Assembly (NCBI GenBank): GCA_041738235.1
Contig: JBGSQF010000012.1
Span: 10,363-74,362 of the forward strand
DNA length: 64,000 nucleotides
Reading direction: 5' to 3'
Source of the DNA: Minisyncoccia bacterium
Lineage (GTDB): Bacteria > Patescibacteriota > Minisyncoccia > Moranbacterales > GCA-2747515
Shown here: in pieces, positions 7,392-25,732 of the stretch
Numbering within the stretch: the stretch's first letter is position 1
How the letters are laid out: every line of letters starts with the position of its first letter
The notes under the pieces: model-generated
What the model was told of the DNA's origin: nothing
What the model saw: the letters and a program-made list of their open reading frames with translations, nothing else
The model's database searches: none
Program-made: the position numbers and the translations under genes

Positions 7392-7477
7392 TCACCCCCA
7401 ATTGGCTTTGCAAAAAAAATAGACGTACTACACGTCTATGTATAATTATAACATATTTTTGCATTTAAGTCAATATC

Positions 7478-7565
7478 CCATTCCTTCCTCCTTCCGACTT
7501 TCCAACTTCCTGACCTTATAGACTTTACAGACTTTCAACTTTATAAACTTCCCGACCTTCTCTTT
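7478..7565 (+). repeat. phased ACTTT/GACTTT short-repeat array, copy R1
   Basis: CCGACTTTCCAACTTCCTGACCTTATAGACTTTACAGACTTTCAACTTTATAAACTTCCCGACCTTC. ACTT(T)/ACCTT recurs every 8-10 bp. Confidence 0.7.
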
Positions 7566-7571
7566 CCCCAT

Positions 7572-7616
7572 AAAAAAACGACCGGGGAGCATTGCACTCC
7601 TAGGTCGTCGTCGTTT
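7572..7616 (-). terminator. rho-independent terminator downstream of the M23 peptidase gene
   Basis: On the minus strand: AAACGACGACGACC...GGTCGTTTTTTT. A GC stem (ACGACC/GGTCGT with an inner GGGGAG/CTCCCC pairing) followed by a T7 run. Confidence 0.5.
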
Positions 7617-7681
7617 GCCACATAGTCACCTCCGTCGAGCTTCCTTGCTCTGTCAAACGGTATTGGTAGTGGCGATGTAAG

Positions 7682-9697
7682 TCATTTGAGGTAAAAGGAG
7701 ATGGTGCGTTCCACCGTCGGGAACTCCCCGCATGTGGATCGGATAAGGACGCGGTAGGTCCTCCATCCTCCGTCTCCAAGCTTGATGTTGTCGTTGTCGA
7801 CCCTCTCGTGTGCGGATTGCCCGACACCGAGAATGCCGATGGTGTCGCGATCACGATAGGTGCCGGAGTTGATGAAGTACTGGGCCTCCGCTTCGCATGT
7901 CATTGGTCCATTCCCCACGTTTTGGAAATTCACGTTGGGGTGGTAGCGCCTTCCTTTGCTTCCGGTCCCGCCATCCCTCACGATCTTTCCGTCGTAGTCG
8001 AGCCACAGGTCCGTTATGGCGATACGGGGGATAGCCGGGTTCACATAGAACCAGAAGTCGGAGGCATTGTTGCCCTCATCCGCTTCCGTGACGTTTCCCT
8101 GATAGTCGGCTACGGCTCGTCCTCTCCACCAACCAGGGACATTTGCGGTAAAGGGCTCGCCTCCGGTATATTCCTGACTGATCGATCCAGGATTAAGCTC
8201 GTCCACGCCGTCGTCCATGACATAGTTGAGATTTCCATTTGGGGTTTGTAACTGATAGGCCATCCGTGATGCGGCCGCTTTCCTTCCCCCAATGTTCTCA
8301 ACGTTGGCCCAGAGACCGAAGTGGTTGCCTTGAGTCAGAGAGGTCCTTCCGTTCGTGAGTCCCGCTCCTGAGATCACCATATCCGGTCGGTAGAGGTTCG
8401 GAGCGTTAAGGTCGTAGGCGAAGGATTCGATTCGGGAGGTGTTATCTCCCTCATCGGATTCCGATACCTCGTCTTCCGCGTCGCCCTTGGTCTTGAACTC
8501 GACCCGGGTGGTGTTGACGCTGGGGATGGTATAGGTATACGTTTCCTGGATCATTTGCCCTTCGTCGAGCTTGGCGATCGTCATGTAGCCCCGGTTGATC
8601 TTGATCCAGTCCCCGCCGTCAAACCTGACATAGTAGTCGATCTCGATCGTGTCTTTCCCGGGGTCGGCCCAATTACCGGCGTCATCGTGTTCAGCAATTG
8701 CCTGTACACGAAGCTTGACCGTCAGGGGTCCGAGTGTATCGCGTCCTGCGATGAACTCGTTGCCGTCGGGATCGAGAATGTCGAAGTCGAAGGTGAGGTT
8801 GGTTTGAGTGGGGTTTCCGTTATACCCGTCACCGCCCACGCCGTAGGTGTTCCCGCTGGTCTTGCCCGTTTCATTCACTGCGCTCCATACGGAAGGATCG
8901 ACGGCACATTGCGGGCTGTTCTCGGCGACGCACTCCAGATAAAACTGAACATCCTGCATATCGCACCGAGAGTCGGGTGGCAGTTGGTTCCAGCACATGG
9001 TGGGAAACCAGGCACTCGTTACAGTGATCGGATTGGGGATGTTCGTAGGAATCCTCGACAGGTAGTTATCTGGACCGGTGTGGACGATGAAGTCGATGGG
9101 GTCGATGAGGCCATTGTCATAGTAAGACTTTCCATTTACGACAATGGGAAATCCATATTTGTCCCATGACCATCTCCCATATCCACTCGAAATCGGATTT
9201 GGGAGATCAGGGTGAACCACTCCAAAGTGAAGATGGTTCCCGCCGACCCAGTTCCCGATATACCCGATCGTCTCTCCGGCTTTGACCGTCACACCAGGAT
9301 CTTTGGCATCGCTCTTGCGAACGTGCCCATAAAGGACAACGAAATCTCCATACTCGTTACTACGATGACGAACGAGCAGGGCGATGTTGTCATTGGTGCC
9401 GTCGTTACTCCAATAGGATTGACTCCATGATTGCACGACACCGTCGGAAATGGCACGAACAGGCGTTCCATATCCGGCCAAGAGGTCGACGCCGATATGG
9501 TAGACGGGTCCGTTGTCTCCCGGTGGATAGCATCCATCGTGATATTCCGGCTTCGTGAGCCACTTACCACAGTCGGCAACCTTGAGATTATCCGTCCCAA
9601 CGGGATAGACGAATCCGGTTTGAGTGTAGATGGAGTCGGCGGAGGTTACCGTCGAGAGCATCAAGAGACACAGCGCGAGAAAGGCATGAATGCCCAT
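7682..9697 (-). CDS. secreted M23 (LytM) family metallopeptidase with long C-terminal beta-rich region
   Basis: Signal peptide MGIHAFLALCLLMLSTVTSA. M23 motifs HIGVDL...GTPVRA and GNHLHFGVV. About 450 C-terminal residues rich in G/N/D/T. GC-rich relative to its flanks. Confidence 0.8.
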   Translation of the reverse strand: MGIHAFLALCLLMLSTVTSADSIYTQTGFVYPVGTDNLKVADCGKWLTKPEYHDGCYPPGDNGPVYHIGVDLLAGYGTPVRAISDGVVQSWSQSYWSNDGTNDNIALLVRHRSNEYGDFVVLYGHVRKSDAKDPGVTVKAGETIGYIGNWVGGNHLHFGVVHPDLPNPISSGYGRWSWDKYGFPIVVNGKSYYDNGLIDPIDFIVHTGPDNYLSRIPTNIPNPITVTSAWFPTMCWNQLPPDSRCDMQDVQFYLECVAENSPQCAVDPSVWSAVNETGKTSGNTYGVGGDGYNGNPTQTNLTFDFDILDPDGNEFIAGRDTLGPLTVKLRVQAIAEHDDAGNWADPGKDTIEIDYYVRFDGGDWIKINRGYMTIAKLDEGQMIQETYTYTIPSVNTTRVEFKTKGDAEDEVSESDEGDNTSRIESFAYDLNAPNLYRPDMVISGAGLTNGRTSLTQGNHFGLWANVENIGGRKAAASRMAYQLQTPNGNLNYVMDDGVDELNPGSISQEYTGGEPFTANVPGWWRGRAVADYQGNVTEADEGNNASDFWFYVNPAIPRIAITDLWLDYDGKIVRDGGTGSKGRRYHPNVNFQNVGNGPMTCEAEAQYFINSGTYRDRDTIGILGVGQSAHERVDNDNIKLGDGGWRTYRVLIRSTCGEFPTVERTISFYLK

Positions 9698-9785
9698 GAG
9701 TTTTTACCTCGTACAAGTTGTTAACGATCACTATGCCGGAACAATACCGAAAACCAAGGAGAAGAATTTCTCTTCGGTTGGGGAA

Positions 9786-10433
9786 TTACTCCGTGAGGGG
9801 CTTGAGCGTTTGGAGAATGCCGTAGTATACATCCTTAACTTCATAATTTTGCGAATAATTCAAAAAGAAAATTCTCAGCATGAAAACATTATTCCCAACA
9901 AACATTGTGAACATCTGTCCTCTATCCAATACCCCTTCCTTGAAATACGGTAGCTCAACTCTATCATAGGAGTCTTTTTGCATGCTAATATTTGCATTAG
10001 CATCTACAAGAGAAGAAGGTGTTATCTGAACAATGCATTCCCCTTCCCCCTCAATAAAAGCGTTCCCATATTTCTCAGTGCCAATACATGCAGAACCCTC
10101 AAGTAAATCATCTCGCACAACCCACCCCTCTTCCTTTGGATATCGAAACTCAATTCCCAATTGTTCATTACGATAGTATCCTGTCCATTTCGTCGTATCT
10201 ACTGCAGGAAGAGTGATCGTTTCGGATCGGTCTATGAGATCTTGAAATGTTTTGGGGGGGTTGTTTTTTTCTTCTTTCTGTCCTTCCTCCATTTTCCTCT
10301 GCTCTTCTTCGATCTGTTTTTGGGCCATTTGCGCATCTTTCTTTACCTCTCCCGAGTACCACAAAACACCCCCGGCAATAAGGACGGCGGTGGCGAGGAA
10401 GATACTCAAGAAAACGATACTTTTTTTGTTCAT
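9786..10433 (-). CDS. hypothetical secreted/membrane-anchored protein
   Basis: N-terminal TM MNKKSIVFLSIFLATAVLIAGGVLW, then a charged E/K/Q-rich stretch. Confidence 0.5.
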   Translation of the reverse strand: MNKKSIVFLSIFLATAVLIAGGVLWYSGEVKKDAQMAQKQIEEEQRKMEEGQKEEKNNPPKTFQDLIDRSETITLPAVDTTKWTGYYRNEQLGIEFRYPKEEGWVVRDDLLEGSACIGTEKYGNAFIEGEGECIVQITPSSLVDANANISMQKDSYDRVELPYFKEGVLDRGQMFTMFVGNNVFMLRIFFLNYSQNYEVKDVYYGILQTLKPLTE

Positions 10434-10550
10434 AGGAGTGGGTTATATAAATTTTTTGTGAACGGATCAATGTAATATATTGTACAGTATTTGTCAATGG
10501 TCCGGTAGTTCTCTTTTTTCTTTTCCCCTCTTTACTCTCTCTTCTGCATC

Positions 10551-10648
10551 TTCGACTTCCCGACTTTATGGACTTCCTGACTTTCGACTCTTAATCCCCC
10601 TAACTTTTGACTTTATGGACTTTATAGACTTTCAACTCTACAAACTCT
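10551..10648 (+). repeat. phased GACTTT repeat array, copy R2
   Basis: TTCGACTTCCCGACTTTATGGACTTCCTGACTTTCGACTC...TTTTGACTTTATGGACTTTATAGACTTTCAACTCTACAAACTC. Confidence 0.7.
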
Positions 10649-11315
10649 TACACACTTCCGTGCACGGATCGAGCCACGCGGATAGTTCCGCTTTTGATGC
10701 TACATATCCGCGAATGTTCGGCGTAGAGCCTTTAAAAAAACCAAGATGCAGATGCTTTCGTTCGCCATCGGTGTCGGCACTGCCACCGGCACCCAGTATG
10801 CCGATCTCTTCCCCCTGATCGACCTGGTCCCCCACCTTCCAATCCACACTTCCAAGAGCCAGATGTCCATATATCACCGAGATAGGATTGCCACGGAGAT
10901 CACACAACTGCGCCACCACTCCGCCGTATCCGGAAGCGGATCGCTTGAGGGTAAGTTTCCCCGTGCAGACGGCTCGGATCGGAACATCCACATTGGTTTC
11001 TGACGGAAATGTCTCAAGATCCGTACCGGTGTGATATCCGCGAAAACGCTCCGGCTGCACAGGTGAGGTCTTGGGGTCGATAAAAATACCGAAAGGCTTT
11101 TTGGTTACTCTTTCCGACACACGATCGATCGGCGACGCAAACTCCGGCGCCACCACAGCAGGCACCTCCGTCACCACGGGCGCCGCATTCTGGTCCGTCA
11201 CTGGGGGCGCGACAACATTCGAATTCTCCGAAACACTTTGTTGTCCTTTCCACAGCAAAACCCCCACCACCAAAATAACCACAGCAATTCCCGAAAGAAG
11301 AAATTTTTTGTACAT
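10638..11315 (-). CDS. M23 (LytM) family peptidase, membrane-anchored
   Basis: Signal anchor MYKKFLLSGIAVVILVVGVLL. M23 motifs GYHTGTDLE...VIYGHL...HLHLGFF. Confidence 0.8.
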   Translation of the reverse strand: MYKKFLLSGIAVVILVVGVLLWKGQQSVSENSNVVAPPVTDQNAAPVVTEVPAVVAPEFASPIDRVSERVTKKPFGIFIDPKTSPVQPERFRGYHTGTDLETFPSETNVDVPIRAVCTGKLTLKRSASGYGGVVAQLCDLRGNPISVIYGHLALGSVDWKVGDQVDQGEEIGILGAGGSADTDGERKHLHLGFFKGSTPNIRGYVASKAELSAWLDPCTEVCKSL

Positions 11316-11348
11316 ATCAAAAATTCAGATCACTGAAGTGTCTCTTTC

Positions 11349-12200: not shown

Positions 12201-12220
12201 AAAGAAATAAGTTTCCTTCC

Positions 12221-12847
12221 TTACCATATAATTTTTCGCTTCGGTTTTCTTATAGAATTCGAAACAATCGATCGATCCGGTTTTATTATAATTATCGGTC
12301 TCTCTTTGACTGGTTCCAAGGTTCGTGAGGCCTTCTTCTTTCGACGACCCCAAGAACGCTCGATCTCTGCAACTATCTTCCTCAGTTCTTCATACACAAT
12401 AACAACAGCCGGAATAACAATGAACAGAATAAACCCAACTGGCTTTTTCACATAATCAACCGCATATCCCAAGTACGGGATCTGAAACAACACCTTTCCT
12501 ATAACATCACTTTCCGGAACCAGTTCCCCATCTTCAACTTCATTGGCATCTCCTTTAAAAACAAAAACCTTCTGTCCCTCTTTTGTGTCTTCTCGAACAA
12601 TGCGGTGGGTGATGGTCACGCTCTTATCGCTTGTTTGACGAGTTGCAATATCGCCAATTCCATATCCAGAAACCTTTCGAACAAGAATAACACTACCGGT
12701 ATGAATGGTAGGCTCCATAGACCCTGATTGCACCACAAAAGAGCGCAGACCAAGAACAGAGAACGTAGAAAGAGCTAGAAACCCTGCGATGACAATAAAC
12801 ACAACAACCACAACATTCGCCACGATCGAAAATATCTTTTTGAACAT
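12221..12847 (-). CDS. sipW: signal peptidase I, SipW/archaeal type (S26B)
   Basis: N-terminal TM, then VVQSGSMEPTIHTGSVILV (SGSMEPT catalytic Ser box of SipW-type SPases). A second TM follows, then a basic tail. Confidence 0.8.
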   Translation of the reverse strand: MFKKIFSIVANVVVVVFIVIAGFLALSTFSVLGLRSFVVQSGSMEPTIHTGSVILVRKVSGYGIGDIATRQTSDKSVTITHRIVREDTKEGQKVFVFKGDANEVEDGELVPESDVIGKVLFQIPYLGYAVDYVKKPVGFILFIVIPAVVIVYEELRKIVAEIERSWGRRKKKASRTLEPVKERPIIIIKPDRSIVSNSIRKPKRKIIW

Positions 12848-12969
12848 ATCAGACTCAAAACTAATTTAAGAAAACAAGCGATCAAACCACCCTATTACCC
12901 TTCACCAGAAAACATCTCCTTGCCACCCCCACCCCATGAAGTCTCACGGGGTGAAAGGGGTTTGGACCA

Positions 12970-13551
12970 TTAGAAACCTGAATTAAGATCAGCTGGCCAG
13001 ATCGTTGCCCCTGCCTGGCGAGCTTGTACATAAAGACTTGCATTATATACCTCATTCTGATACGAATCTCCGGCATTTACGCTCAACTTAACCGTCACCC
13101 GAAACTGTGACTTTCCACCAGCGGGGATAGTATAGTTGGCAGTATCTGCTCCAGTCGGGCTATCATAGAAGATCCCTGTTATAGGATCCACCGATGCCAA
13201 TGTTACCCAAACAAAACCATCCCATCGTTCTACCTTTGCCACGCTGATCATTGTATCGGTTAAGCTTGTGTCAACCCAATTGCCCACAGCCGCCCCACGG
13301 ATCTGCACGCCACTCGTACTCGTATTTTTGACATCAAAATTCACCAATGCCGTATCCCCAGGCAACAAGCCTGTGATATGAAATGGGGTCATTGTGGTAT
13401 CAGTATTTTGATCTTGAATATCAATTGTCAATGTCCCCGTTGTGATATCACTCCCAAGAACCTCACCTTTTACACTAAAATATGCGTATGTTCCCCCAAC
13501 GATCGCGACAGCTGCCGCAATAATGAGAAAACTTTTTAAGATCTGTTTCAT
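12970..13551 (-). CDS. TasA/camelysin-like (peptidase M73 family fold) secreted protein with SipW-cognate signal peptide
   Basis: MKQILKSFLIIAAAVAIVGGTYAYFS matches the SipW-cognate signal (GGGT.A.F). TGTLTIDI and LLPGDTALVNFDVKNTSTS parallel B. subtilis TasA segments ASGTLDL and LKPGDKLTKDFQFENNGS. Confidence 0.7.
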   Translation of the reverse strand: MKQILKSFLIIAAAVAIVGGTYAYFSVKGEVLGSDITTGTLTIDIQDQNTDTTMTPFHITGLLPGDTALVNFDVKNTSTSGVQIRGAAVGNWVDTSLTDTMISVAKVERWDGFVWVTLASVDPITGIFYDSPTGADTANYTIPAGGKSQFRVTVKLSVNAGDSYQNEVYNASLYVQARQAGATIWPADLNSGF

Positions 13552-13699
13552 ATATTTGTAATTATCTTTTATTATTTATTTTATTCTGTCACATCGACGC
13601 TTACAGGGGGGATGCCCGTGACAGATCTTCTCAAGAAGCGATAGTATCTCCTTGCTCCCCCTGCCCCAAGAGAAGCCTCAGGGCAAGAGGAGTTTGGAT

Positions 13700-14284
13700 T
13701 TATTCACTCCAATCCGGATTCTCAAGTTGCGTCCCATCCACAACAATATCAGCAGTCGCACTTCCACCTTGCATATCGTTATCCGCAGATGGATCAAGCT
13801 GGAAAGAAAGCTTAAAACAATGAGAGATGTTTACTCCAAGCGAACCCGTTGGCGCCGTTATCGAACTTACCGGAGATTCAAAACTGAGATCGGATAACTT
13901 CCCAGTATTCGAATACGTTACAGAACTGATATCCCCAGGATCTCCGCCACAAAACCCGTGTTCCACTTTCACATTGATCTTGTCATAAAATCCTGGAATT
14001 GTTTCACTCCATGTCCCATCTTGGAAACGATACTTGATCGGTACAGTCGAAAGTTCATTATATACCGTCATCTTATACGGCCCGTACCATACACCGGGTT
14101 CCATCTCTGTAAGATTCACACTTTGACTTTCCGTCACGTCACCGTTCAACTTAAAATCAAGTTTTCCAGAAGCAAACGTGTTGCCACTCACCACAGCCTG
14201 ATCGGTGAAATATGCCCATGTCGCCCCTCCCGCCACTACTGCGACTGCAACTACAACGAAGATGCTTTTCAGAATATTTTTCAT
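13700..14284 (-). CDS. TasA/camelysin-like secreted protein, paralog of 12970..13551
   Basis: Start chosen at MKNILKSIFVVVAVAVVAGGATWAYFTDQAVVSGNTFASGKLDFKL, a classic SipW-cognate signal plus the TasA-like ATFASGTLDL-type block. The ORF-track extension to 14383 adds an implausible 33-aa leader. Confidence 0.7.
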   Translation of the reverse strand: MKNILKSIFVVVAVAVVAGGATWAYFTDQAVVSGNTFASGKLDFKLNGDVTESQSVNLTEMEPGVWYGPYKMTVYNELSTVPIKYRFQDGTWSETIPGFYDKINVKVEHGFCGGDPGDISSVTYSNTGKLSDLSFESPVSSITAPTGSLGVNISHCFKLSFQLDPSADNDMQGGSATADIVVDGTQLENPDWSE

Positions 14285-14662
14285 ACATCGTATAGAAAAT
14301 GAATTATACTTTTTAGAATATTTGTCACATCGACCTTGTGACGTGCATACCGATACGTTCAAACATAACAAAACGCTCAACAAAAAAACCGACGAGGATC
14401 AAACAGAAAGATCTGTTGAACCTTCGTCGGTTCTCTCCAGGAAACTGATGACATACAAAGAATGGATGTTCATAAAGGGAGAGCGGGATCGCTAATTTAT
14501 TTTTTTTTAAAAACCTTCAGAAAAACTCCTTATAAATCATACTACAAAAGATCTGTAAAAATATTCCAAACCATTCTCTTTTGATCATTATTTTATAAAA
14601 TTTCTATAAAAATATTAATTTTCTTCAACTTCTTTCACTTGTTTTGTCAATCCGCGCCCCAC

Positions 14663-14800
14663 TTACTCATTTTCCATGAGGTCTTTCTGGTACCGCCCTG
14701 GCGTGATGATCTCTTCGAGCCTCAAGTGATGCGGAGCCCGAATAAGAATCCCGATAACAAAAAGTATCACTACATTCCCAACCGTGAAGGAAATAAAAAA
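14663..14800 (-). pseudogene. 3' gene fragment paralogous to the membrane hydrolase gene 27102..27593; no start codon
   Basis: Minus-strand translation FFISFTVGNVVILFVIGILIRAPHHLRLEEIITPGRYQKDLMENE* aligns with the C-terminus of the 27102..27593 product (...YRALHHFRLEEIITPERYQKDLMEGIGD). About 65 nt at 14679-14744 are near-identical to 27124-27188. Confidence 0.5.
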
Positions 14801-14826
14801 GCCCCGATCTAACGGGGCTCTTTTTA
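14795..14826. terminator. bidirectional rho-independent terminator
   Basis: AAAAAAGCCCCGATCTAACGGGGCTCTTTTT: a 5-bp GC stem flanked by an A-run and a T-run, immediately downstream of the minus-strand gene 14837..15411. Confidence 0.6.
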
Positions 14827-14836
14827 TACCAGAAGA

Positions 14837-15411
14837 TTATCGTCTGTTATTGTCTTTTCGATCATGCTCTTTGTTGTAATCATTCTTTCCCTCTTCAAAT
14901 CCTTGGTTGTATCCCTCGTCATATCCACCATTGTATTCATTGTCATGACCATTTCGATAGTCATCGTTATCGTCATCTTTCTTTCCGTCGTCATGTCCAT
15001 CGTTGTATCCATCTTCATGACCATCCCTGTGCCCTCTGTCATGATCCCTATCATTGTGATCATCATCCCGATTGTCATGTCCATAGCGAGACTTATGCTC
15101 TTTCTTTACCTTCTTGGCTTTTTTATCCTTATCCCCTCTGCCATCTGTTACGATCGCTACATTATCTCCCTCCCCCACTTCCTCACTAAATTTTGTATCC
15201 TTGTTCGTTGAAACTTCAATATCCTTTCCGTCAAAAGTTCTGATCTTGAGTTTGTCTCGATCAAAACTCGTCACTGTGCCGGTGTATGTTTTGGCAGTGA
15301 ATTTTTCGATAAACCCGGAACGCGCCTCAGCTGAGGTAGCGGCAAAACCAACTCCTGCGCATAGAACTCCCAAAACCACAGATGTTCCGATAATTTTCTT
15401 GGCTAACATAG
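14837..15411 (-). CDS. secreted protein with extreme Asp/His/Asn/Gly-rich C-terminal low-complexity tail
   Basis: Start chosen at MLAKKIIGTSVVLGVLCAGVGFAATSAEA (signal peptide). Tail reads HDNRDDDHNDRDHDRGHRDGHEDGYNDGHDDGKKDDDNDDYRNGHDNEYNGGYDEGYNQGFEEG. Confidence 0.5.
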
Positions 15412-15536
15412 TTTTTATATTATAGAAATTACAGTGAAGTGCTATTATACCATACATACAATACGGCACAAGCCCCCGGATCAAATCCGGATACTGCAAC
15501 CAGTACAATCAACACAAGAAGATATTTCAATACACT

Positions 15537-17258
15537 CTAATCGTACTTCAATTTAAAAACAACCATAGAATCGGAATCATATACTTCTTCAAAATAGGGA
15601 GAATTATAAATGCCGGAGAATCCCTCCCAATCATCCGTCTTGGCAACGACAATATGCGTCACATCCGAGCTTTTCCAAAAATCACGATCATCCGGGATCA
15701 CTTCACTCTTGAGTAATGCCACATGATCGTCCCAGATACTTTTCTCGGACTCAAGTAAAAACCGATTGTCCGTATCATTGCTCGTGATCATCGGCTGAGA
15801 GAAGAAAGCTTGCGCAGGACTCCCCACCATCGCATAGCCGGCAAAGTTCAATCGGATATAGGCGTGCCACGGGAGAAATAGAACGTTTCTCGTCTCAGGG
15901 TCTTCTTGCAATACTCTTTTCGACTCATACCAGCCAAAAGGATAGTCATGCGACGCAACCCTGGCCAGAACTCCCCAAAGCAACGTCCCGGCCCACAGAA
16001 ATGGAATAATAGAAACCACGATTACCGAAACAACTCTCACCCACATTCCTTCGCCCATACGAAACCATCTCCCCAAAGATGAAATCGCATACAACACCCC
16101 AAACGGCACCAGAAGAGCATACGCAAAAGCCAACACACCAGAGATCTTTTCTGTATCCCGAAGTCCCCGGAAAAATGGCACCACTCCGTAGAACAGATCG
16201 ATGATCGGTCGCGTCAGGGCACTGCCGTATCCCACGGAAAGCAAAAGGGCGGGAACGAAAGCGCAAACCATGGCCAGTGCAAAATCGTTCCTCCGACGAA
16301 TCTCACGCCACGCACCCAAACCAAAGAACACCCAAACCACGATCGGGACTGCCCACCACCACGAGAAATAGTCTTTGAACTGCAAGAAATCGTTACTCCA
16401 AAATCCATACAGTGCCGCCACGTTAAAAAACATCCCGAATGTCGGATCGCTCAGTGTGGCAAATGCCTCGAAGTCCCCCATCCCGATATTGGCAAACGTC
16501 CTTGTATCGTCAAAGAATCCAAAAATCCAGAAACTATTTACCACCAAAAAGATCCCAACGAATACCACTCCCCTCTCAAAAAACTCTTTCCACTTTCGAT
16601 TTTCTAACTTTCGACTTTCTGTTTCTTCACTTTCAACTTTACTGACTTTCAACCTTACAAGCTTTTGATCTCCCAACTTTATGACTTTATAGACTTTTGA
16701 CTGCATGACCCACAACACTAGTAGAAATCCCGAAGCAATATACGCCCAATGAAGACTCAGTATCGGATAAATGGAGAAGGCAAACGCAAAGACCAAAAAT
16801 CGACGCCAGTCCGCACGCTCAAGTAGTCGCAAAAAAAGCAACACCATGATCGGTAAAAACCCATACCCGAGCATCACAAACCAATGCCCCGCCATAAAGC
16901 GATCGTACACGTGAGGATTTATCATATAGAGCATCCCCGCGCTCACTGCGAGCGACTGTGGCATGAAGCGAAGTGCCAGTCGATACAGCGTAAATCCCGG
17001 GAGAAATAGAACCAGCGTCAGCACGATCTTTTGTAGAACTTCGGCCGGTATCAAAAGGTTCAGAAAAACAAACAATGCGCGTATCGGGAAACCGGGATCA
17101 ATCCCATTTCGCATACTATCGGCAAGATTCAAGTTTGGCCCCCAGACCATATCGGTCAAGAATACAAAACCAGACGCATAAAGAGGCGCCATAATAGCCA
17201 TAGCCACAAGCAAGAAGATCCCTATCGGATATATTTCCCTTAATATCTTTCTCATCAT
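15537..17258 (-). CDS. large polytopic membrane protein (putative GT-C-like membrane glycosyltransferase/polymerase) carrying an in-frame repeat-derived hydrophilic insert
   Basis: At least 12 TM helices plus a C-terminal soluble domain. Residues KVIKLGDQKLVRLKVSKVESEETESRKLENRKWKEF are encoded by the GACTTT-type repeat at 16588-16705. Confidence 0.6.
   Translation of the reverse strand: MMRKILREIYPIGIFLLVAMAIMAPLYASGFVFLTDMVWGPNLNLADSMRNGIDPGFPIRALFVFLNLLIPAEVLQKIVLTLVLFLPGFTLYRLALRFMPQSLAVSAGMLYMINPHVYDRFMAGHWFVMLGYGFLPIMVLLFLRLLERADWRRFLVFAFAFSIYPILSLHWAYIASGFLLVLWVMQSKVYKVIKLGDQKLVRLKVSKVESEETESRKLENRKWKEFFERGVVFVGIFLVVNSFWIFGFFDDTRTFANIGMGDFEAFATLSDPTFGMFFNVAALYGFWSNDFLQFKDYFSWWWAVPIVVWVFFGLGAWREIRRRNDFALAMVCAFVPALLLSVGYGSALTRPIIDLFYGVVPFFRGLRDTEKISGVLAFAYALLVPFGVLYAISSLGRWFRMGEGMWVRVVSVIVVSIIPFLWAGTLLWGVLARVASHDYPFGWYESKRVLQEDPETRNVLFLPWHAYIRLNFAGYAMVGSPAQAFFSQPMITSNDTDNRFLLESEKSIWDDHVALLKSEVIPDDRDFWKSSDVTHIVVAKTDDWEGFSGIYNSPYFEEVYDSDSMVVFKLKYD
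16588..16705 (+). repeat. phased GACTTT repeat array, copy R3, embedded in-frame in CDS 15537..17258
   Basis: CACTTTCGATTTTCTAACTTTCGACTTTCTG...CAACTTTATGACTTTATAGACTTTTGACTG. Confidence 0.7.
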
Positions 17259-17261
17259 ACG

Positions 17262-17358
17262 TTCACTTTATGGACTTCCCCACTCTCTCCCTTCCCCACT
17301 CTTTTACTCTCACACTCTCTAACTTTCTAACTTTATAGACTTTGGACTTTACAGACTC
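17262..17358 (+). repeat. phased GACTTT repeat array, copy R4
   Basis: CACTTTATGGACTTCCCCACTCTCTCCC...TAACTTTCTAACTTTATAGACTTTGGACTTTACAGACTC. Confidence 0.7.
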
Positions 17359-17897
17359 TTTCTTATCCCATCCACAGACCTTATGGGTCTACGTCTTACA
17401 TCCATCGGTCTTGCAGATCTTACATGCTCAGTAACATGAAAGACCCTCGAATTTATAGACTTTCGACTATTGACTCTATCTCCTCCCGACTTTCGACTTT
17501 TCACTCGAGATGTCCCCATCTCGACGATCTGCTTCACCACTCCGATGACCAGAAAGTAATACACCCAGACCGCTACGCGTTCATCCCACCCGGAAACAAA
17601 ACTCACACCACTATTCCCCATCGCGTTGAGGATCGCCACCGCCACTAGCGCCACTAGCGCCAGTCCGATAGAGATCCGCGAGTCCAAATCCCAATACACC
17701 AAGACAAAGCAAAATACCCAGAAAAATATATTCTCGAATGAGAAATGTAGTCCGAAATACAATCCCGATGCAAGAGCGATCACGATCACTACTCCTACCC
17801 AATCCCGAACATGAGTACTCTTTCCCACCATAAAGACCCTGCGGAGCAGTCTCCACAAATCCATCGGTGTAAAAATGTAATCACTCAATCGAAACAT
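17349..17897 (-). CDS. small membrane protein; C-terminal about 50 residues are encoded by repeat sequence
   Basis: Four TM helices. Tail SRVKSRKSGGDRVNSRKSINSRVFHVTE... is translated from repeat R5 (17448-17505). Confidence 0.45.
   Translation of the reverse strand: MFRLSDYIFTPMDLWRLLRRVFMVGKSTHVRDWVGVVIVIALASGLYFGLHFSFENIFFWVFCFVLVYWDLDSRISIGLALVALVAVAILNAMGNSGVSFVSGWDERVAVWVYYFLVIGVVKQIVEMGTSRVKSRKSGGDRVNSRKSINSRVFHVTEHVRSARPMDVRRRPIRSVDGIRKSL
17448..17505 (+). repeat. phased GACTTT repeat array, copy R5 (forms the 3' end of CDS 17349..17897)
   Basis: GAATTTATAGACTTTCGACTATTGACTCTATCTCCTCCCGACTTTCGACTTTTCACTCGAG. Confidence 0.65.
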
Positions 17898-17904
17898 ACT
17901 CCTT

Positions 17905-18012
17905 TTTAACTTTCAACTTTACGACTTTCGACCCTTTGTTCTACTACCTCCCCACTTTTGACTTTATGACTTTACAGACTTTCGACTCGATAGACTTTAT
18001 AGACTGACTCAA
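17905..18012 (+). repeat. phased GACTTT repeat array, copy R6
   Basis: TAACTTTCAACTTTACGACTTTCGACCC...TTTTGACTTTATGACTTTACAGACTTTCGACTCGATAGACTTTATAGACTGACTC. Confidence 0.7.
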
Positions 18013-18014
18013 CC

Positions 18015-20540
18015 TTACAGCTTGTATAGATTCGGTGAACTCAAAACTTTCGGTGCTTTAGCCATTCGTCTTCTCTTCACAAGATCGTATCCCACATATC
18101 CCAGACATCCCACAAATATAATTCCGATAACGATAAAACCCATATAAAAATATCGATTGAAATCATTTTCTACGACCAACAAAATATCGTATGTCCCATC
18201 ATCATTTTTCTTGCAAATGTTTCTATTTTTACACAAGTCATCAACATTAATCCACCAAGAATTGGAATAGTTGTTAATCTTATAATGAGTGTCTTCTGGA
18301 ATTGTCGCTTTACCCCATGTTTCCCAGAAATGTCCGTTGGGCAGATTATCGTTGCGTATCGAACCATCAAAGTTCTTAGAGATAAATTCATTCCCAGAGG
18401 CTGAGATTAATTTTTGGTCAATCATTCCCTGTGCTTCACTTTTGGTCGCCTGCCGATTGGATTCAACATCTGAAACACTATAGTTACCCAGAGGATTAAG
18501 GTTCTTTTGTCTTTTATCTTCAAACTTAATCGGATACGCCTTCCAGTTTTCACTATATTGCTCGGGATAAACTAAAAGAAAGGAATTTTTCACACCGTGT
18601 AAAACTACTTGTTCTTTCCAGTGATTGACGGCTTTATATTCAACCGATCTGAGCTTTGGCGATTCATCTACCTGCTGTGTAGCATGAAGATAATATGAAT
18701 CAATGTCTTTCGGTTGATATTCGGTTAAGCGAACATTGTCATAAAGATTATCCACCTCTTGGCTACCATCCGAAGACGCATAAAAAAATATGCTGATACT
18801 TTTTATATCACTAATCTCTGGATCGATGATCTTCTCATATATATGCCAATTACTATCCCGAACCTGGATCATTTCCGAGTGAGAATCTTGTTGGTCACCA
18901 CTCCTAAGATTATAATAATACATTACTTTCCCACCTCTAATATTTTTATAATCAAATTGTAACTTATACCTCATCCCCTCTAATATCTCAACAGAAAAAG
19001 TCTTTGACACACAGGCAAAATGATTTTTAGAAGAAAGCTCCATAGACTGATTCCCATCACTAGCATCTAGCGATAACCTAACTCCCAAATCTGGATCCCC
19101 TGGCCTTGTATCACTACAATCACCTGGCTTTTCTTGCCAAAGTCCACTTTCAAAGGAGGCGTCCTCAGAATCAATTAGATTGCTCTTATTAACAACATAT
19201 CCAAAGTCATTCTCACCCAAATCAAGAAAGATATCCTTCGCTAGCACAATATCCTTATCAATCAACGATCCAATATCGATCTTTCTTGTTTCAGATAGTG
19301 AATATTCTTTGAGTTGAATATTGTCATATAAGTTAGTCACTTCTTTACTACCATCTGACGGGGCATATAGATACAGATCTATATATTTTATACTTTTTAT
19401 TGGATCCCCCACATTTGTGTTACTTACCCCCTCATTAGAAGCAAGTAGATCCTCTTGTCCCTCCTTATTATCATATTCAGGATATACAAAATTTTCCTTT
19501 ATTTTCTCAGGATCTATAACTATAGAATATGTATGCCATTTATCATCCTTTGCATTAATTGTTTCAGCAGAAGCAAATCCCGAAGATATAATGTTGTTCT
19601 CATTATGTAACTTATAATAATAACGAATGTCTTCTCCAGTAATGTTTTTATAATCAAAAGACAAGCGATATATTTTATCACTCTGAATTTGAACGGGAAA
19701 AGTCTTGTTTGTGCAAGCATGATGGTTTACAGAGGATAGTTTCAGAGCTGTGTATCCTTCTGTAGCATCAAAAACCACTTCCTGCATTATTTCTGGCACC
19801 CCTTCAAGTTTATTGCTACAATCTCCAGGTTCTTTCTGCCACAAACCATTCTCAAACGAAATGCTCTCATTATCGGATAATACATCTCGAGTAGGTTTAA
19901 ATACCATTATCTCTTTATTCTCTATATCTTCTACCGATAGATTTGTACCCACGCGATCAAACATATCTAAAAAACGGCCATTAAATCTCAATAAATGATC
20001 CGCCGCAATATTGTCCAATGAAAAGAATTCTTTTTCATTAATGACTCCTGGAGAATCCTTAATTATTATTTCCCTCCGAGGAAGTACAAAATTTAACTTC
20101 CTTTGAGTTTCGTCGTAAGTGATCTGCAAATACGTATCCCTGTTTATATTTTTTTCAAGATAGAAATTCAGATCAGAACCACCACCATTGTTAAATAACC
20201 ATTTATCCCCCTTGTTTCCAAGAGTTAGAAACACCTCTCTACTTTGCCCGATAACTGGGCGGTAATTTTTTTTGTCGAAGCTCCCGTCCAAAATCCCACC
20301 CCCCTCTGACGATATATCTTTTAGACTTTCTATCCCAACATCTCCCAATATAATACGTTCCAAATATCCCAAACCACTAATAGGATCAGAAAAATTTGAT
20401 CCCCGTATAAAATAAAAAATAACCCCAATAATTATAAGATAAAAAAGTGCTGTCAGAATAAAATACTTCTTATTACTATTATTGACCATCTCTTTTAATA
20501 TTCTTATGTCTAGGAATAAATAAACACAGCACACCAACAA
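18015..20540 (-). CDS. large membrane-anchored protein with N- and C-terminal TM segments and an internal tandem duplication of an ~170-aa Cys-containing domain
   Basis: TM YFILTALFYLIIIGVIFYFI near the N-terminus and YFYMGFIVIGIIFVGCLGYVGY near the C-terminus. Repeats SFENGLWQKEPGDCS...ACTNKTF...FDYKNI...LYDNIQLKEY and SFESGLWQEKPGDCS...ACVSKTF...FDYKNI...LYDNVRLTEY. An alternative start at 20489 (MVNNSNKK) is possible. Confidence 0.6.
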   Translation of the reverse strand: MLVCCVYLFLDIRILKEMVNNSNKKYFILTALFYLIIIGVIFYFIRGSNFSDPISGLGYLERIILGDVGIESLKDISSEGGGILDGSFDKKNYRPVIGQSREVFLTLGNKGDKWLFNNGGGSDLNFYLEKNINRDTYLQITYDETQRKLNFVLPRREIIIKDSPGVINEKEFFSLDNIAADHLLRFNGRFLDMFDRVGTNLSVEDIENKEIMVFKPTRDVLSDNESISFENGLWQKEPGDCSNKLEGVPEIMQEVVFDATEGYTALKLSSVNHHACTNKTFPVQIQSDKIYRLSFDYKNITGEDIRYYYKLHNENNIISSGFASAETINAKDDKWHTYSIVIDPEKIKENFVYPEYDNKEGQEDLLASNEGVSNTNVGDPIKSIKYIDLYLYAPSDGSKEVTNLYDNIQLKEYSLSETRKIDIGSLIDKDIVLAKDIFLDLGENDFGYVVNKSNLIDSEDASFESGLWQEKPGDCSDTRPGDPDLGVRLSLDASDGNQSMELSSKNHFACVSKTFSVEILEGMRYKLQFDYKNIRGGKVMYYYNLRSGDQQDSHSEMIQVRDSNWHIYEKIIDPEISDIKSISIFFYASSDGSQEVDNLYDNVRLTEYQPKDIDSYYLHATQQVDESPKLRSVEYKAVNHWKEQVVLHGVKNSFLLVYPEQYSENWKAYPIKFEDKRQKNLNPLGNYSVSDVESNRQATKSEAQGMIDQKLISASGNEFISKNFDGSIRNDNLPNGHFWETWGKATIPEDTHYKINNYSNSWWINVDDLCKNRNICKKNDDGTYDILLVVENDFNRYFYMGFIVIGIIFVGCLGYVGYDLVKRRRMAKAPKVLSSPNLYKL

Positions 20541-23887: not shown

Positions 23888-23891
23888 ATGA

Positions 23892-24719
23892 TCAAAATAT
23901 TTTTCTATAAACTCTAAAAAGATACTCCGTCATGCCTATCGGCAAAGGGAGATATGCAAATAACAAAACACCCAAATTAGCATACAAATCCAGAAATGCT
24001 GGTTTATAATTATATTTTTTGTAAGCACTGTGCCTAACGCTCAAGGTAGCCCTTACGTTCTCCTTAGTCCTTGCCGATGTTATAGAATACTCATGCCTCC
24101 TATACCGTAGCAGAATAGCTTGCACGTTTGCAAAAGAGTAATACTGTCCAATTCGAAAAGTCATATCCAAATCTTCTGCTTGTTTTATATGCTCATCATA
24201 CTTTCCAACTCTATCAAAGACTGTTTTTCGAATCATTGCAACTCCTTGAGAAACAGGCGAATATCGAAAAATTTTCTTTCTTAATTTATCATCAGATCTT
24301 TCATACTTTTGAAGTGCTAAAACCCCTTTTTCATTAAAGAATTGTAACCACCCTCCACAAATACCAACATCTGGGTTTTTCTCCATAAAAGCATATTGCC
24401 TCTCTATTCTATTTACTACAGAAATATCATCAGAATCCTGCCATACCACATATTTTCCCTTTGCCATTGAAACTAACTTGTTTCTATTAATAGGAATTCC
24501 CATATTCTTTTCATTCTTAACGGCGGTAATCCTACTGTCTTGTTTTTCGTATTTCTGAATAATGTTCCATGTCTTATCAGTTGAACAATCGTCAATAATA
24601 ATAAACTCAAAATCCTTGAAGGTTTGATTCAGAATACTTTCGATTGCCTCGGAAATATACTTTTCTGAATTATAGGCGGGCATTAATACCGAGACTTTGG
24701 GCGCATTGAATTCCATCAT
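23892..24719 (-). CDS. glycosyltransferase family 2
   Basis: VSVLMPAYNSEKYISEAIESILNQTFKDFEFIIIDDCSTDKT (GT-A fold with DxD context). Confidence 0.8.
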   Translation of the reverse strand: MMEFNAPKVSVLMPAYNSEKYISEAIESILNQTFKDFEFIIIDDCSTDKTWNIIQKYEKQDSRITAVKNEKNMGIPINRNKLVSMAKGKYVVWQDSDDISVVNRIERQYAFMEKNPDVGICGGWLQFFNEKGVLALQKYERSDDKLRKKIFRYSPVSQGVAMIRKTVFDRVGKYDEHIKQAEDLDMTFRIGQYYSFANVQAILLRYRRHEYSITSARTKENVRATLSVRHSAYKKYNYKPAFLDLYANLGVLLFAYLPLPIGMTEYLFRVYRKIF

Positions 24720-24734
24720 TTTACTCTTTACAAA

Positions 24735-25682
24735 TTAATTTCTTGTGTTTCTTTTCCTTACCACGTACAATGGTCTATTTGAGACATCTTTGTGAATACT
24801 TCCAATATAAAGTGCAATCAGTCCCAAACAAATGAGGATAATACCGACCAAGAAAAGGAGAATGACCGCAAGGATCGCCGGACCGGAGAAATTTAATCCA
24901 TAAGGATCTTTAAATATGTATTGTTCGATAAATATAAAAAGTCCCAGTATTCCAGATGTCAGAGTAATTAAGATGCCCAAATATCCGGCGATCTTTAAGG
25001 GGAAAAGACTTTGCGATATAAAACTCGAAAATGCCAATTTAAGAAGTTTGGCTGTACTATAACTCGCTTTTCCACTGGCTCGCTCATTGGCCTGAAAATG
25101 GATGTATTCTCTCCGAAAACCCAACCAATCCAAAAGCCCCCGCGTGATACGCTCGTGTTCGGTCAAGCGATTGAATTCATCGATCACGATCCGATCGATC
25201 AAGCGAAAATCGGTGGAACCAGATACCGATCCATGTTCACTGATAAACGTCATTATCGCATTAAACACAGCAGAACCCCATTTTTTGATAAGTCCCTCGC
25301 CTTTGTTTCTCTCTCTGATACCGATCACCATTTCTGCCCCCGCTTCCCACTTGGTGATGAATTCCGGTATGCGGTCAATTGGGTGTTGTAGGTCGGCATC
25401 TATCACGATGCACGCTTCTCCTTTACAGTGGTGTATCCCGGCGGTTGTCGCTTCCTCCTTGCCGAAGTTTCTCGAAAAATCTATAAGCCTCACGCTTGGA
25501 TCCAATTGCATGATCTTCTCGACCTCCGCAAGCGTTCCGTCAGCACTCCCATCATTTACAAATGTCATCTCAAACACGTATTTCCCGGCGAATTTCGTGA
25601 TAATTTTCTTGAGCTCAACATACACCAATGGAACGTTCTTTTCCTCGTTGTATACCGGGATGATGATGGAGATAAGTTTCAT
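24735..25682 (-). CDS. polyprenol-phosphate glycosyltransferase (GT2, DPM1/GtrB/ArnC-like) with C-terminal TM helices
   Basis: MKLISIIIPVYNEEKNVP...FVNDGSADGT...IDADLQHP. Two C-terminal TM helices. Confidence 0.8.
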   Translation of the reverse strand: MKLISIIIPVYNEEKNVPLVYVELKKIITKFAGKYVFEMTFVNDGSADGTLAEVEKIMQLDPSVRLIDFSRNFGKEEATTAGIHHCKGEACIVIDADLQHPIDRIPEFITKWEAGAEMVIGIRERNKGEGLIKKWGSAVFNAIMTFISEHGSVSGSTDFRLIDRIVIDEFNRLTEHERITRGLLDWLGFRREYIHFQANERASGKASYSTAKLLKLAFSSFISQSLFPLKIAGYLGILITLTSGILGLFIFIEQYIFKDPYGLNFSGPAILAVILLFLVGIILICLGLIALYIGSIHKDVSNRPLYVVRKRNTRN

Positions 25683-25693
25683 AGGAGTAATTT

Positions 25694-25732
25694 AGTCCAA
25701 AGTCTATAAAGTCTATCGAGTCCAAAGTTAAA
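25694..25732 (-). repeat. GACTTT repeat, copy R7 (inverted orientation)
   Basis: Plus strand GTCCAAAGTCTATAAAGTCTATCGAGTCCAAAGTTAAAG is the reverse complement of CTTTAACTTTGGACTCGATAGACTTTATAGACTTTGGAC. It shares CTCGATAGACTTTATAGACT with R6. Confidence 0.65.

Follow-up and report, generated by a model that had tools for sequence, protein, structure and literature searches.

The seven GACTTT mini-repeat arrays of the window, by which we mean the whole 64,000-nucleotide stretch of DNA analysed here, are copies of a widespread, modular, interspersed repeat family that occurs in Patescibacteria and in some Bacteroidales. This conclusion is well supported. The family falls among the intergenic short tandem repeats, which are a known kind of sequence, and it has apparently not been described so far. 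With less assurance, we read the arrays of the window as solo arms of a gene-boundary hairpin-repeat family that are tolerated since their AAAGTC reading is stop-poor and unstructured, a reading that we favour although we would not place it quite at even chances.

Enrichment and unit structure

All seven arrays listed by an earlier, sequence-only reading of this DNA were recovered in place, and the motif far exceeds chance within the window. The pattern GACTTT-N1-3-GACTTT has 9 matches against 0.06 expected (dinucleotide shuffles of the 64-kb window), ACTTT-N4-ACTTT occurs 9 times in the window against 0.28 expected, and sub-arrays with at least three units number 10 in the window against 0.4 in shuffles. 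A density of at least four ACTTT per 30 bp is reached in the 64 kb only at the seven loci. GACTTT lies on the forward strand in six of the seven arrays, with 25694-25732 inverted, and one unit grammar is common to all. Their description as a single repeat family holds, as does the remark that they are not CRISPR. The arrays match no Rfam family, and where hairpins were sought in the window arrays both strands folded weakly (z-scores of -1.9 to +1.8).

Each unit consists of RACTTT and a spacer of either 1 nt (T/C; period 7) or 3 nt (A-Y-R; period 9). The unit spacing in the window arrays is 7 bp (n = 11), 8 bp (n = 11) or 9 bp (n = 13); in 67 arrays from other contigs, from which the search pattern described below is itself absent, the corresponding counts are 92, 18 and 133, and the spacers are those of the window (ATA, T, C, ATG, AAG, ACA and ACG). 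Within the hexamer, G1 is free and A2, C3 and T4 are nearly fixed. Ordinary slipped-strand simple-sequence repeats, arisen independently at each site with neither a shared origin nor a function, would hardly produce such a grammar, which is common with its spacers to all seven arrays and to more than 120 unrelated contigs; moreover, units of period 7 and period 9 are interleaved at random and not in runs, and imperfect arrays are unchanged between strains whose flanks differ. This reading is disfavoured and we give it next to no credence, even though some bacteria have many tandem repeats of heptamer scale (Mrazek 2007, as reported in PMC4679880) and a scan for any hexamer repeated three times gave at least the matches listed, as did its permuted control.

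A helical phasing of 8-10 bp had been proposed for the units and does not stand. The AA/TT periodogram of the arrays has its maximum at 7.75-8.0 bp and nothing at 10.5 bp, and together with the spacing of 7, 8 or 9 bp this indicates that the arrays are not in helical phase. Phased-bend promoter elements, which had also been suggested, are not supported: the period is about 8 and not 10.5 bp, good sigma-70-like promoters follow only A1 and A2, and A3 to A7 have no space for one.

Model ribbon-helix-helix arrays include the 7-bp heptads of omega, the 8-bp metboxes of MetJ and the ACTC boxes that ParG binds every 8 bp, and a short core that recurs about every 8 bp may be likened to them. The conserved core and the position of A1 and A2 directly upstream of the region's two best promoter-like sites would likewise suit double-stranded-DNA operator or iteron arrays for a cooperative regulator of the envelope gene cluster. 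We nevertheless consider such operators quite improbable, since the switch between 7 and 9 bp would turn neighbouring cores towards different helix faces, A3 to A7 lie inside genes or abut start codons, repeats elsewhere flank every kind of gene, and no DNA-binding protein gene is conserved beside the arrays.

Genomic context of the seven arrays

Array A1 (7478-7565, forward strand) is built of GACTTT-type units that read AAAGUC in the sense of the minus-strand genes, and it is flanked by the terminator of gene 7682-9697 on one side and by the promoter of gene 6765-7391 on the other. Just upstream of it in gene sense is an intrinsic-terminator-like hairpin with a U7 tract (7572-7609, minus strand, -17.6 kcal/mol), and directly downstream is the region's best match to a sigma-70-like promoter (7445-7473, minus strand, TTGACT-17-TATAAT with a TG extension). 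Array A2 (10551-10648, forward strand) extends over the stop codon of the M23 peptidase gene 10638-11315, and in gene sense it precedes by about 50-150 bp a promoter-like site for gene 9786-10433 (10469-10497, minus strand, TTGACA-17-TACATT). Among the seven arrays, only A1 and A2 lie upstream of a good sigma-70-like promoter; their cores are 87% identical over 39 nt and their flanking genes are unrelated. It had been observed that some arrays run into coding sequence, and A2 at its stop codon agrees with this, as do A3 and A5.

Array A3 (16588-16705, forward strand) lies wholly within gene 15537-17258 (minus strand), which encodes a 573-aa polytopic membrane protein, and is read in frame as SKVYKVIKLGDQKLVRLKVSKVESEETESRKLENRK. 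The resulting peptide forms a variable loop that separates hydrophobic segments. The homologues P0004, P0005, P0014, P0018 and P0020 lack the insert; distant homologues of the protein carry PF11847 or PF20176 (DUF6541). Array A4 with its pyrimidine-rich flank (17262-17358, forward strand) stops, in gene sense, about 5 nt short of the ATG of the same gene. Array A5 (17448-17505, forward strand) is located in the 3′ end of ORF 17349-17897, where another frame reads SRVKSRKSGGDRVNSRKSINSR, and relatives have shorter ESRK/ENRK tails at this point. Array A6 (17905-18012, forward strand) fills the gap from the stop of 18015-20540 to the Shine-Dalgarno sequence and ATG of 17349-17897. Array A7 (25694-25732, minus strand), the sole inverted copy, reads GACUUU in gene sense and ends 11-16 nt upstream of the ATG of the GT2 gene 24735-25682; it is complementary to all other arrays and matches A6 at 27 of 28 nt. 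A1, A4, A6 and A7 have stops in all frames.

The statement that the arrays always lie in minus-strand gene clusters is uninformative: every long ORF from 5.2 to 41.6 kb, as chosen by a greedy ORF call, is on the minus strand. The association with an accessory cluster is coincidental and local: no arrays accompany the envelope and glycosylation genes that go on to 44 kb, and in other genomes GACTTT repeats flank all kinds of genes and also tRNAs.

Base composition bears on a further explanation, namely that the arrays are recombination anchors whose junction homology would allow cell-surface gene cassettes to be swapped between genomes. A1, A2 and A6 stand at sharp GC steps, A6 (at the left edge) and A7 are near the two ends of a block of 25-38% GC and are the inverted copies noted above, and in L001 an array borders an insertion of roughly 4 kb that duplicates the 3′ end of a gene. 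However, GC discontinuity is not in excess when 55 array-bearing junctions are compared with 439 others (p = 0.21), A7 stands some 0.9 kb off the right-hand boundary of the low-GC block (about 24.8 kb), and no recombinase gene is nearby, and we judge anchors to be very improbable.

Distribution and conservation in other genomes

A 26-base composite pattern taken from the window, for which we estimate a chance expectation of about 0.004, has matches in over 120 metagenome contigs, whose GC content is 27-53%. Eight of these contigs could be named: seven belong to Patescibacteria (Parcubacteria, Roizmanbacteria and unclassified), and one belongs to Butyricimonas/Odoribacter (Bacteroidales). The phage and plasmid collections that were searched gave no match to the repeat. 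Other genomes carry many copies each, at junctions that are unrelated to one another, in gaps between ORFs as well as between tRNA genes. In relatives with 50-57% amino-acid identity and 35% to 56% GC, the motif occurs at orthologous places and in the same sense orientation, and four independent comparisons of orthologous sites show 100% identity in the array columns where the flanks are 77-99.8% identical.

Inverted pairs and solo arms

Many copies elsewhere are inverted pairs of the form 5′-(AAAGTC)n-loop-(GACTTT)n-3′, with 50 non-redundant pairs in the 120 loci, and at loci of several phyla the order AAAGTC then GACTTT was counted 65 times and the opposite order 0 times. The pairs fold between genes into long hairpins of -16 to -63 kcal/mol; in many the arms are paired over most of their length, and some surround a GC-rich stem. 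AAAGTC arms start most often within 10 nt past stop codons, GACTTT arms end 10-15 nt ahead of start codons, and the ends of the element are frequently TAGTC...GACTA. The 64-kb window contains no paired copy, only solo arms, of which six read AAAGUC in gene sense and one (A7) reads GACUUU. The comparison with REP-like elements made in the sequence-only reading therefore fails within the window, where the arms are solo and fold weakly, and succeeds elsewhere, where the inverted pairs and long hairpins give the family a REP/BIME-like lifestyle.

According to the reading that we favour, the complete element would be such a pair filling the gap between two genes, and on either strand an A-rich 5′ arm would pair with a U-rich 3′ arm in a long hairpin, where each GAC-UUU unit may add a short G/C-clamped stem extension and then a U run. 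Such a gene-boundary hairpin might be of a bidirectional-terminator or RNA-end-protecting type. The window would then hold six A-rich arms in mRNA sense and, in A7, a U-rich arm just before a start codon, and we infer that these solo arms are by-products, most likely partial or decayed copies that spread from junction to junction by recombination or copying. The AAAGTC reading is 70% purine and unstructured, is stop-free in two of the three frames and yields hydrophilic K/S/V/E linkers when translated; solo arms would persist because this reading is harmless, which would explain A3 in a membrane-protein loop and A5 as a C-terminal tail. A terminator role of the pairs is not confirmed: their gene arrangements (13 tandem, 2 convergent and 4 divergent) are background-like, with neither convergent enrichment nor divergent depletion, and hairpin stability is no greater when read in the direction of the gene ending there (p = 0.69).

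The same pairs may be viewed as a selfish, non-autonomous mobile element, MITE- or RPE-like, with arms of iterated transposase-binding hexamers, solo arms as broken copies and in-frame copies as tolerated insertions. The many copies per genome at unrelated ORF-ORF and tRNA-tRNA junctions, the fixed pair arrangement, the frequent TAGTC...GACTA ends, the in-frame loop insertion of A3 and the near-identical stretches at distant loci with unrelated flanks all accord with this view. It is, on the whole, unlikely, because neither a transposase nor a RAYT-like gene is among the scanned window ORFs, neither defined termini nor target-site duplications could be demonstrated, copies differ freely in length and in the order of their units, the phage and plasmid collections gave no match, and orthologous copies exceed their coding flanks in conservation, which is unexpected for decaying selfish copies.

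That solo arms are by-products is hard to square with the complete conservation of the arrays, with the position-specific variability of the hexamer and with the same arm in six of the seven arrays, and these observations fit a sequence-specific host factor better. As the sequence-only reading had also suggested, the arrays could be binding sites for a protein. This would be an abundant host protein, such as an OB-fold cold-shock-type protein, an S1-like protein or one that makes rings or filaments, that reads the 6-nt core on single-stranded RNA or DNA, tolerates gaps of 1-3 nt, and would cover gene boundaries and regulate hairpin formation, termination or translation. This is possible, if still doubtful. 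The core is conserved, above all at A2, C3 and T4, while spacer length varies; arrays stay identical where flanks diverge; solo arms are unstructured; and GACUUU arms end 10-15 nt before starts that often have no Shine-Dalgarno sequence. A parallel is offered by the heptamer repeats TAACTGA, with the proposed involvement of S1, Csp and CsrA (PMC4679880), and according to a remark in the same source B. subtilis CspB binds heptamer repeats with one protein per heptamer. However, no candidate protein was found, a flexible single-strand binder would not predict bimodal periods (7 or 9, rarely 8), intergenic solo arms occur in both orientations at roughly 60:40, A3 is within a coding region, and A1 may not be transcribed in the sense direction because it lies between a terminator and a promoter.

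Comparison with known repeats

MIRUs of Mycobacterium and BOX elements of Streptococcus pneumoniae are modular units of variable copy number in the intercistronic gaps of operons, oriented with transcription. The GACTTT family shares each of these properties, but its units are of 7-9 nt and not 40-100 nt, and its arrays have no overlapping mini-ORFs. Rickettsia palindromic elements are reportedly selfish repeats inserted in frame in genes (Ogata et al. 2000), and A3 is likewise a non-coding repeat placed in frame in a permissive part of a conserved protein, although it is a solo direct-repeat arm and not a palindrome, and the GACTTT family is mostly intergenic. REP/BIME elements (e.g., GTAG/CGTC-tagged REPs, PMC3733652) are similarly multi-copy, lie after stops or between genes and form hairpins when paired. 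In contrast, the window copies form no hairpins, the arms are iterated 7/9-nt units and not a single palindrome of 20-40 nt, no GTAG/CGTC head is evident by inspection of the arrays, and no RAYT-like gene is among the window ORFs scanned.

The TAACTGA heptamer repeats of Beggiatoaceae, Cyanobacteria and Bacteroidetes (MacGregor 2015, PMC4679880) and the long simple sequence repeats, or LSSRs (Mrazek 2007, as cited in PMC4679880), are also short direct repeats (7-9 nt) that are scattered over many intergenic sites, often directly upstream of starts in place of a Shine-Dalgarno sequence, with occasional ORF-internal copies and a patchy occurrence across distant phyla. The GACTTT units differ in being imperfect and in combining periods of 7 and 9 about a RACTTT core that is conserved; many of their copies are inverted pairs with a fixed arm order, their hosts are mainly Patescibacteria, and the window copies are mostly reversed (AAAGUC) relative to genes. 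The tandem repeats of Borgs, as described in PMC9879509, form repeat regions that arise independently and recently and can create new disordered protein segments; they are comparable in the latter respect, whereas the GACTTT repeats follow one shared imperfect grammar at all loci and in many genomes.

The arrays of the window and their unit grammar

The seven arrays listed in the sequence-only reading are all present where it placed them. A1 (7478-7565), A2 (10551-10648), A3 (16588-16705), A4 (17262-17358), A5 (17448-17505) and A6 (17905-18012) carry GACTTT on the forward strand, and A7 (25694-25732) is inverted, as had been described. Clusters of at least four ACTTT per 30 bp occur in the 64-kb window solely at these loci. 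GACTTT-N1-3-GACTTT was observed nine times in the window against a shuffle expectation of 0.06, ACTTT-N4-ACTTT nine times against 0.28, and sub-arrays of at least three units, with one mismatch allowed, ten times against 0.4. The location in minus-strand gene clusters, which had been remarked on, is uninformative, since between 5.2 and 41.6 kb every long ORF chosen by a greedy ORF call is on the minus strand.

The core-to-core spacing in the window is 7 bp in 11 cases, 8 bp in 11 and 9 bp in 13. A second count, made together with the spacers, gave periods of 7 (9 cases), 8 (5) and 9 (9) and the spacers C, ATA, ACA, CT, T and ATG, a set that matches 67 independent arrays on other contigs. The window arrays fit the definition that we use for a RACTTT 7/9 family: a RACTTT core plus a spacer of 1 nt (T or C) or 3 nt (A-Y-R), in at least 3-4 tandem units. 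The gene-sense strand of six arrays reads AAAGUC and is 70% purine. To judge from their shared sequence, the arrays are related beyond the level of the unit, with 34 of 39 nt common to A1 and A2, 27 of 28 nt common to A6 and A7 in inverted orientation, and 19 of 19 nt common to A4 and A7. Segmental duplication was rejected as the origin of the likeness between A1 and A2, as their flanking genes are unrelated and are not paralogues.

Distribution outside the window

We are confident that the window arrays are solo arms, that is, arrays without an inverted partner, of a widespread modular RACTTT repeat family with 7/9-nt spacing. A composite query taken from the window (ACTTTAT-N0-1-GACTTTATAGACTTT-N1-2-RACT; 26 specified bases, with a chance estimate of our own of approximately 0.004) matched at least 120 metagenome contigs with GC contents of 27-53% and unrelated flanks. 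Ten flanking proteins were searched by exact sequence and eight had source names; seven of these were Patescibacteria (Patescibacteria group, Parcubacteria group and Roizmanbacteria), and the eighth, from a human-gut contig, was Butyricimonas/Odoribacter. The unit grammar was counted in the 67 arrays, which lie on composite-matched contigs and do not themselves contain the query pattern. Their periods were 7 (92 cases), 8 (18) and 9 (133), the 3-nt spacers were ATA (46), ATG (28), AAG (19), ACA (13) and ACG (13), and the 1-nt spacers were T (41) and C (36). Within the hexamer, G1 is often replaced by A and positions A2, C3 and T4 are near-invariant; the order of 7s and 9s along the arrays is random.

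Scans for three GACTTT hexamers (N1-3 in genome contigs, N3 in viral contigs) were rejected as evidence of specificity, and the apparent spread across phyla in the genome-contig scan was set aside, because in viral contigs the permuted control GTCATT gave at least as many matches as could be counted for GACTTT. The composite query alone is treated as informative. Among the genome contigs L003-L122, Flavobacterium, Acidobacteriota and Verrucomicrobiota have similar paired CGACTTT or GGACTTT arrays with the same A-arm/T-arm order, and Cyanobacteria have pure TGACTTT heptamer runs beside other heptamer repeats; given the failed control, these arrays are not counted toward one family. Phage and plasmid collections gave no array match, to which a low-complexity filter may contribute.

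Inverted pairs and their polarity

An inverted partner within 80 nt was found in 50 non-redundant pairs among 120 loci. The order of the arms is fixed: 5′-(AAAGTC)n-loop-(GACTTT)n-3′ was found 65 times and the opposite order 0 times, in two locus sets that include several phyla. The hairpins of these pairs have energies of -16 to -63 kcal/mol; in many of them the arms pair nearly from end to end, and a GC-rich stem is enclosed by some. The commonest start of an AAAGTC arm is no more than 10 nt past a stop codon. GACTTT arms typically end 10-15 nt ahead of a start codon, with ...GACTAA-(AT-rich)-ATG as a frequent junction that lacks a Shine-Dalgarno sequence. tRNA genes flank or neighbour some of the arrays. 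The ends of the pairs, considered as possible MITE-type terminal inverted repeats, often read TAGTC...GACTA, which the unit grammar alone also predicts. In the unrelated repeat-bearing contigs L370 (4435-4525) and L399 (111-232), the same GC-rich palindrome, CCTGCCTGCCGGCAGGCAGG, lies in the middle of the pair, and contigs L408, L424 and L436 share a different central module (AAAAAATTTG-N5-CAAATTTTTT). Because unrelated contigs share identical pair centres, the central modules of the family seem, at the level of sequence, to be interchangeable.

Placement and folding of the window arrays

The host organism is a member of the Patescibacteria, and the source names of homologues of one window protein are Moranbacteria, Patescibacteria, Parcubacteria and Saccharimonadales. 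None of the window arrays adjoins an inverted partner, so that the window holds solo arms only. A1 lies between a terminator-like hairpin (-17.6 kcal/mol, followed by U7) and TTGACT-17-TATAAT, which is the region's best match to a sigma-70-like promoter. An M23 peptidase gene ends within A2, which covers its stop codon and is upstream of a promoter-like TTGACA-17-TACATT. A4, A6 and A7, all with stops in every frame, take up the space between neighbouring genes as far as the start codons. The remark that some arrays run into coding sequence proved correct for A3 and A5. A3 lies in frame in a 573-aa membrane-protein gene (15537-17258), in a variable loop between hydrophobic segments; homologues of this protein span 99% of its length, and several have no insert. 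A5 forms the C-terminal tail of a small membrane protein, in a frame that differs from that of A3.

No stable fold was found in the arrays, for which the minimum free energy is weak on both strands (z from -1.9 to +1.8), and Rfam gave them no match at the gathering threshold or at E ≤ 1. The paired relatives gave only sub-threshold matches to miRNA-hairpin models in Rfam. Two further structured segments were noted. On the minus strand at 7419-7439, a 9-bp stem (AUAGACGUG-UAG-UACGUCUAU) followed by U8 lies between the strong promoter (7473-7445) and a start codon (7391); by its appearance, the 5′ leader of this 208-aa gene contains a terminator or an attenuator. The 89-nt gap between A5 and A4 (17359-17447, minus strand) holds two hairpins (-23.6 kcal/mol, z = -1.85) and has its own short repeats (TCTTACAT).

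Corresponding arrays in relatives

The repeat also recurs in relatives, where the sequence-only reading had suggested looking for it. Four contigs with homologues of the 573-aa protein (50-57% identity; GC 35, 35, 42 and 56%) show the GACTTT motif at corresponding places and in the same sense orientation. In the relative L001, and weakly in L002, the motif is in the same loop of the 573-aa protein homologue, and in L124 it is directly upstream of the gene for this homologue. In L123, it follows the C-terminal anchor 'GYDxVKRR' of a large surface protein and is the equivalent of A6. Moreover, the motif is found in the tail of the small membrane protein in L001 and L002, and L002 also has it in a GT4 glycosyltransferase, within the linker that joins the domains. 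At L001 4701-8540, an array borders an insertion of approximately 4 kb with RhuM-like and zeta-toxin genes; the insertion duplicates the 3′ end (the membrane anchor) of a large surface-protein gene, and the homology begins exactly at the array. In four independent orthologous comparisons, the array columns were identical in 181 of 181 cases while the flanks had diverged (77-99.8% identity); therefore, neutral decay appears disfavoured, on what is a small sample.

What the repeat may do

We tentatively regard it as plausible that the complete element is a gene-boundary hairpin and that the window copies are partial ones, tolerated as solo arms. On either strand, the 5′ arm of the complete hairpin would be A-rich and its 3′ arm U-rich, and the window arrays would be partial copies of it. 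Solo arms may be tolerated because AAAGTC, as it is read, is rich in purines, forms no structure and leaves two frames without stops. The fixed order of the A-arm and the U-arm is compatible with a bidirectional terminator or an end-protecting hairpin, neither of which is confirmed by tests of orientation and asymmetry: the pairs lie between 13 tandem, 2 convergent and 4 divergent gene pairs, the same as the background, and the hairpins are no more stable in the sense of the ending gene (p = 0.69). If the repeat is a general gene-boundary signal, it would offer a first handle on operon punctuation and tuning in these organisms.

Another explanation is that the array is bound by a single-strand-binding protein. 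Such binding is favoured by a core that stays conserved at flexible spacing and by the conservation of the arrays, and there is a precedent in MacGregor's proposal for the TAACTGA heptamer (PMC4679880); we nevertheless consider this explanation rather unlikely. A bolder proposal would join such a protein to the hairpin: the RACTTT 7/9 units would be a phylum-wide cis-regulatory code of the Patescibacteria (and of some Bacteroidales), read by an abundant candidate single-strand nucleic-acid-binding protein that coats the U-rich or the A-rich arm and so decides whether the hairpin forms. We give this proposal little credence; if true, termination, RNA stability or translation would be under a control that is both global and tunable, in organisms with very few classical regulators. 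A selfish MITE- or RPE-like element is similarly improbable in our view, and a Pfam scan of 38 window ORFs gave no transposase-like match; a selfish element this successful would raise the question of how its copies spread.

Several other functions found no support. The suggestion of a phased-bend or UP-like promoter element, and with it the roughly helical periodicity that had been reported, does not stand: the AA/TT periodogram has its maximum at 7.75-8.0 bp with no signal at 10.5 bp, and promoter-like sites follow just two of the arrays, A1 and A2. A promoter scan showed no excess of sites (43 vs. 47 expected), and, on inspection, the unit grammar yields no sigma-70-like hexamer pair at a legal spacing, by which the arrays were rejected as promoters. 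The arrays are not themselves intrinsic terminators, as they form no hairpin; the terminator-like hairpin that adjoins A1 is separate. The orientation of A6 and A7 fits an integrase arm-site (attL/attR) reading, which was rejected with no recombinase and far too many copies per genome. MraZ boxes, Spo0A boxes, DnaA boxes, primase sites and Rho rut sites were leads from resemblance, none of which was supported. In the window, the GC content changes sharply at A1, A2 and A6; a recombination-junction test found no extra GC discontinuity at 55 array-bearing vs. 439 other junctions (494 in total; p = 0.21).

Within ORFs, the AAAGTC sense is dominant (44:9 and 10:1), and the orientation of intergenic solo arms is only approximately 60:40. 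Codon usage accounts for part of the bias within ORFs, since one 'coding array' or more belongs to the native coding sequence. Such a case is the AsnB gene of contig L449, which was rejected as a clean in-frame insertion: to judge by the AsnB family, the array-like DNA encodes a native segment of the protein. The case indicates that the relaxed detector gives some false 'coding arrays'.

Comparison with known repeat classes

The window copies are neither CRISPR arrays nor palindromes of the REP type, and phased bending is likewise excluded for them. CRISPR loci have near-identical repeats of approximately 24-47 nt with unique spacers of similar length, and the judgement that the arrays are too short and irregular for this class is upheld by their imperfect, contiguous units of 7-9 nt. 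The REP-like reading, which had also been offered, fails on the absence of a stable stem-loop on either strand of the window copies; no GTAG/CGTC head was evident in the arrays on reading by eye, and the 38 scanned window ORFs included no match to a transposase such as the RAYT that accompanies REP elements. The nearest described classes are the heptamer direct repeats and long simple sequence repeats (PMC4679880 and works cited there), REP/BIME, Rickettsia palindromic elements, MIRU and BOX. As in long simple sequence and heptamer direct repeats, a unit of 5-11 nt recurs in tandem over a length longer than chance; however, those units are constant and near-perfect, whereas the window periods are mixed (7s and 9s at random) and their TRF matches are 62-93%. 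The mixed 7/9 grammar, the fixed arm order, the host range and the reversed orientation in most window copies distinguish the RACTTT family from all of these classes. Full-text literature searches for the repeat strings returned just nuclear-receptor and miR-142 coincidences, and a keyword search on repeats in Patescibacteria found no description. Therefore, we rate the family as a variant of intergenic short-repeat phenomena for which no earlier description was found.

The Patescibacteria make up a large share of bacterial diversity and have tiny genomes and few known regulators; to our knowledge, almost nothing is known of their non-coding DNA. The RACTTT repeat recurs at gene boundaries in Parcubacteria, Microgenomates and some gut Bacteroidales. 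As the flanking protein of the human-gut contig clusters with Butyricimonas and Odoribacter proteins, bench tests would be possible if cultivable strains carry the repeat. For annotation, the arrays account for unusual stretches of predicted proteins, inserts as well as tails, that are rich in lysine, serine and valine.

Other features of the window

The segment 18000-24800 has a GC content of 25-38%, compared with approximately 44% around it, and holds genes for GT4, GT2 and two proteins without a Pfam match (841 aa and 732 aa); the block is probably acquired DNA. Since the M23 peptidase genes 7682-9697 and 10638-11315, by contrast, have GC contents of 52-57%, the region from 7 to 26 kb is a compositional mosaic. 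At 18088-18114, TATCCCACA occurs three times in tandem where the gene of the 841-aa protein encodes the C-terminal membrane anchor; the unit resembles the DnaA-box consensus TTATCCACA, probably by coincidence. At 14883-15048, within ORF 14837-15508, a 24-nt unit is repeated in tandem six to seven times and gives an 8-residue coding repeat that is unrelated to the GACTTT family. At 12221-14383, two camelysin/TasA-like (Peptidase_M73) genes lie beside an S26/S24-type signal-peptidase-like gene, an arrangement that may be called reminiscent of the tapA-sipW-tasA fibre operon. Finally, the 298-aa product of 4243-5139 contains a Hint (intein/hedgehog-type) domain.
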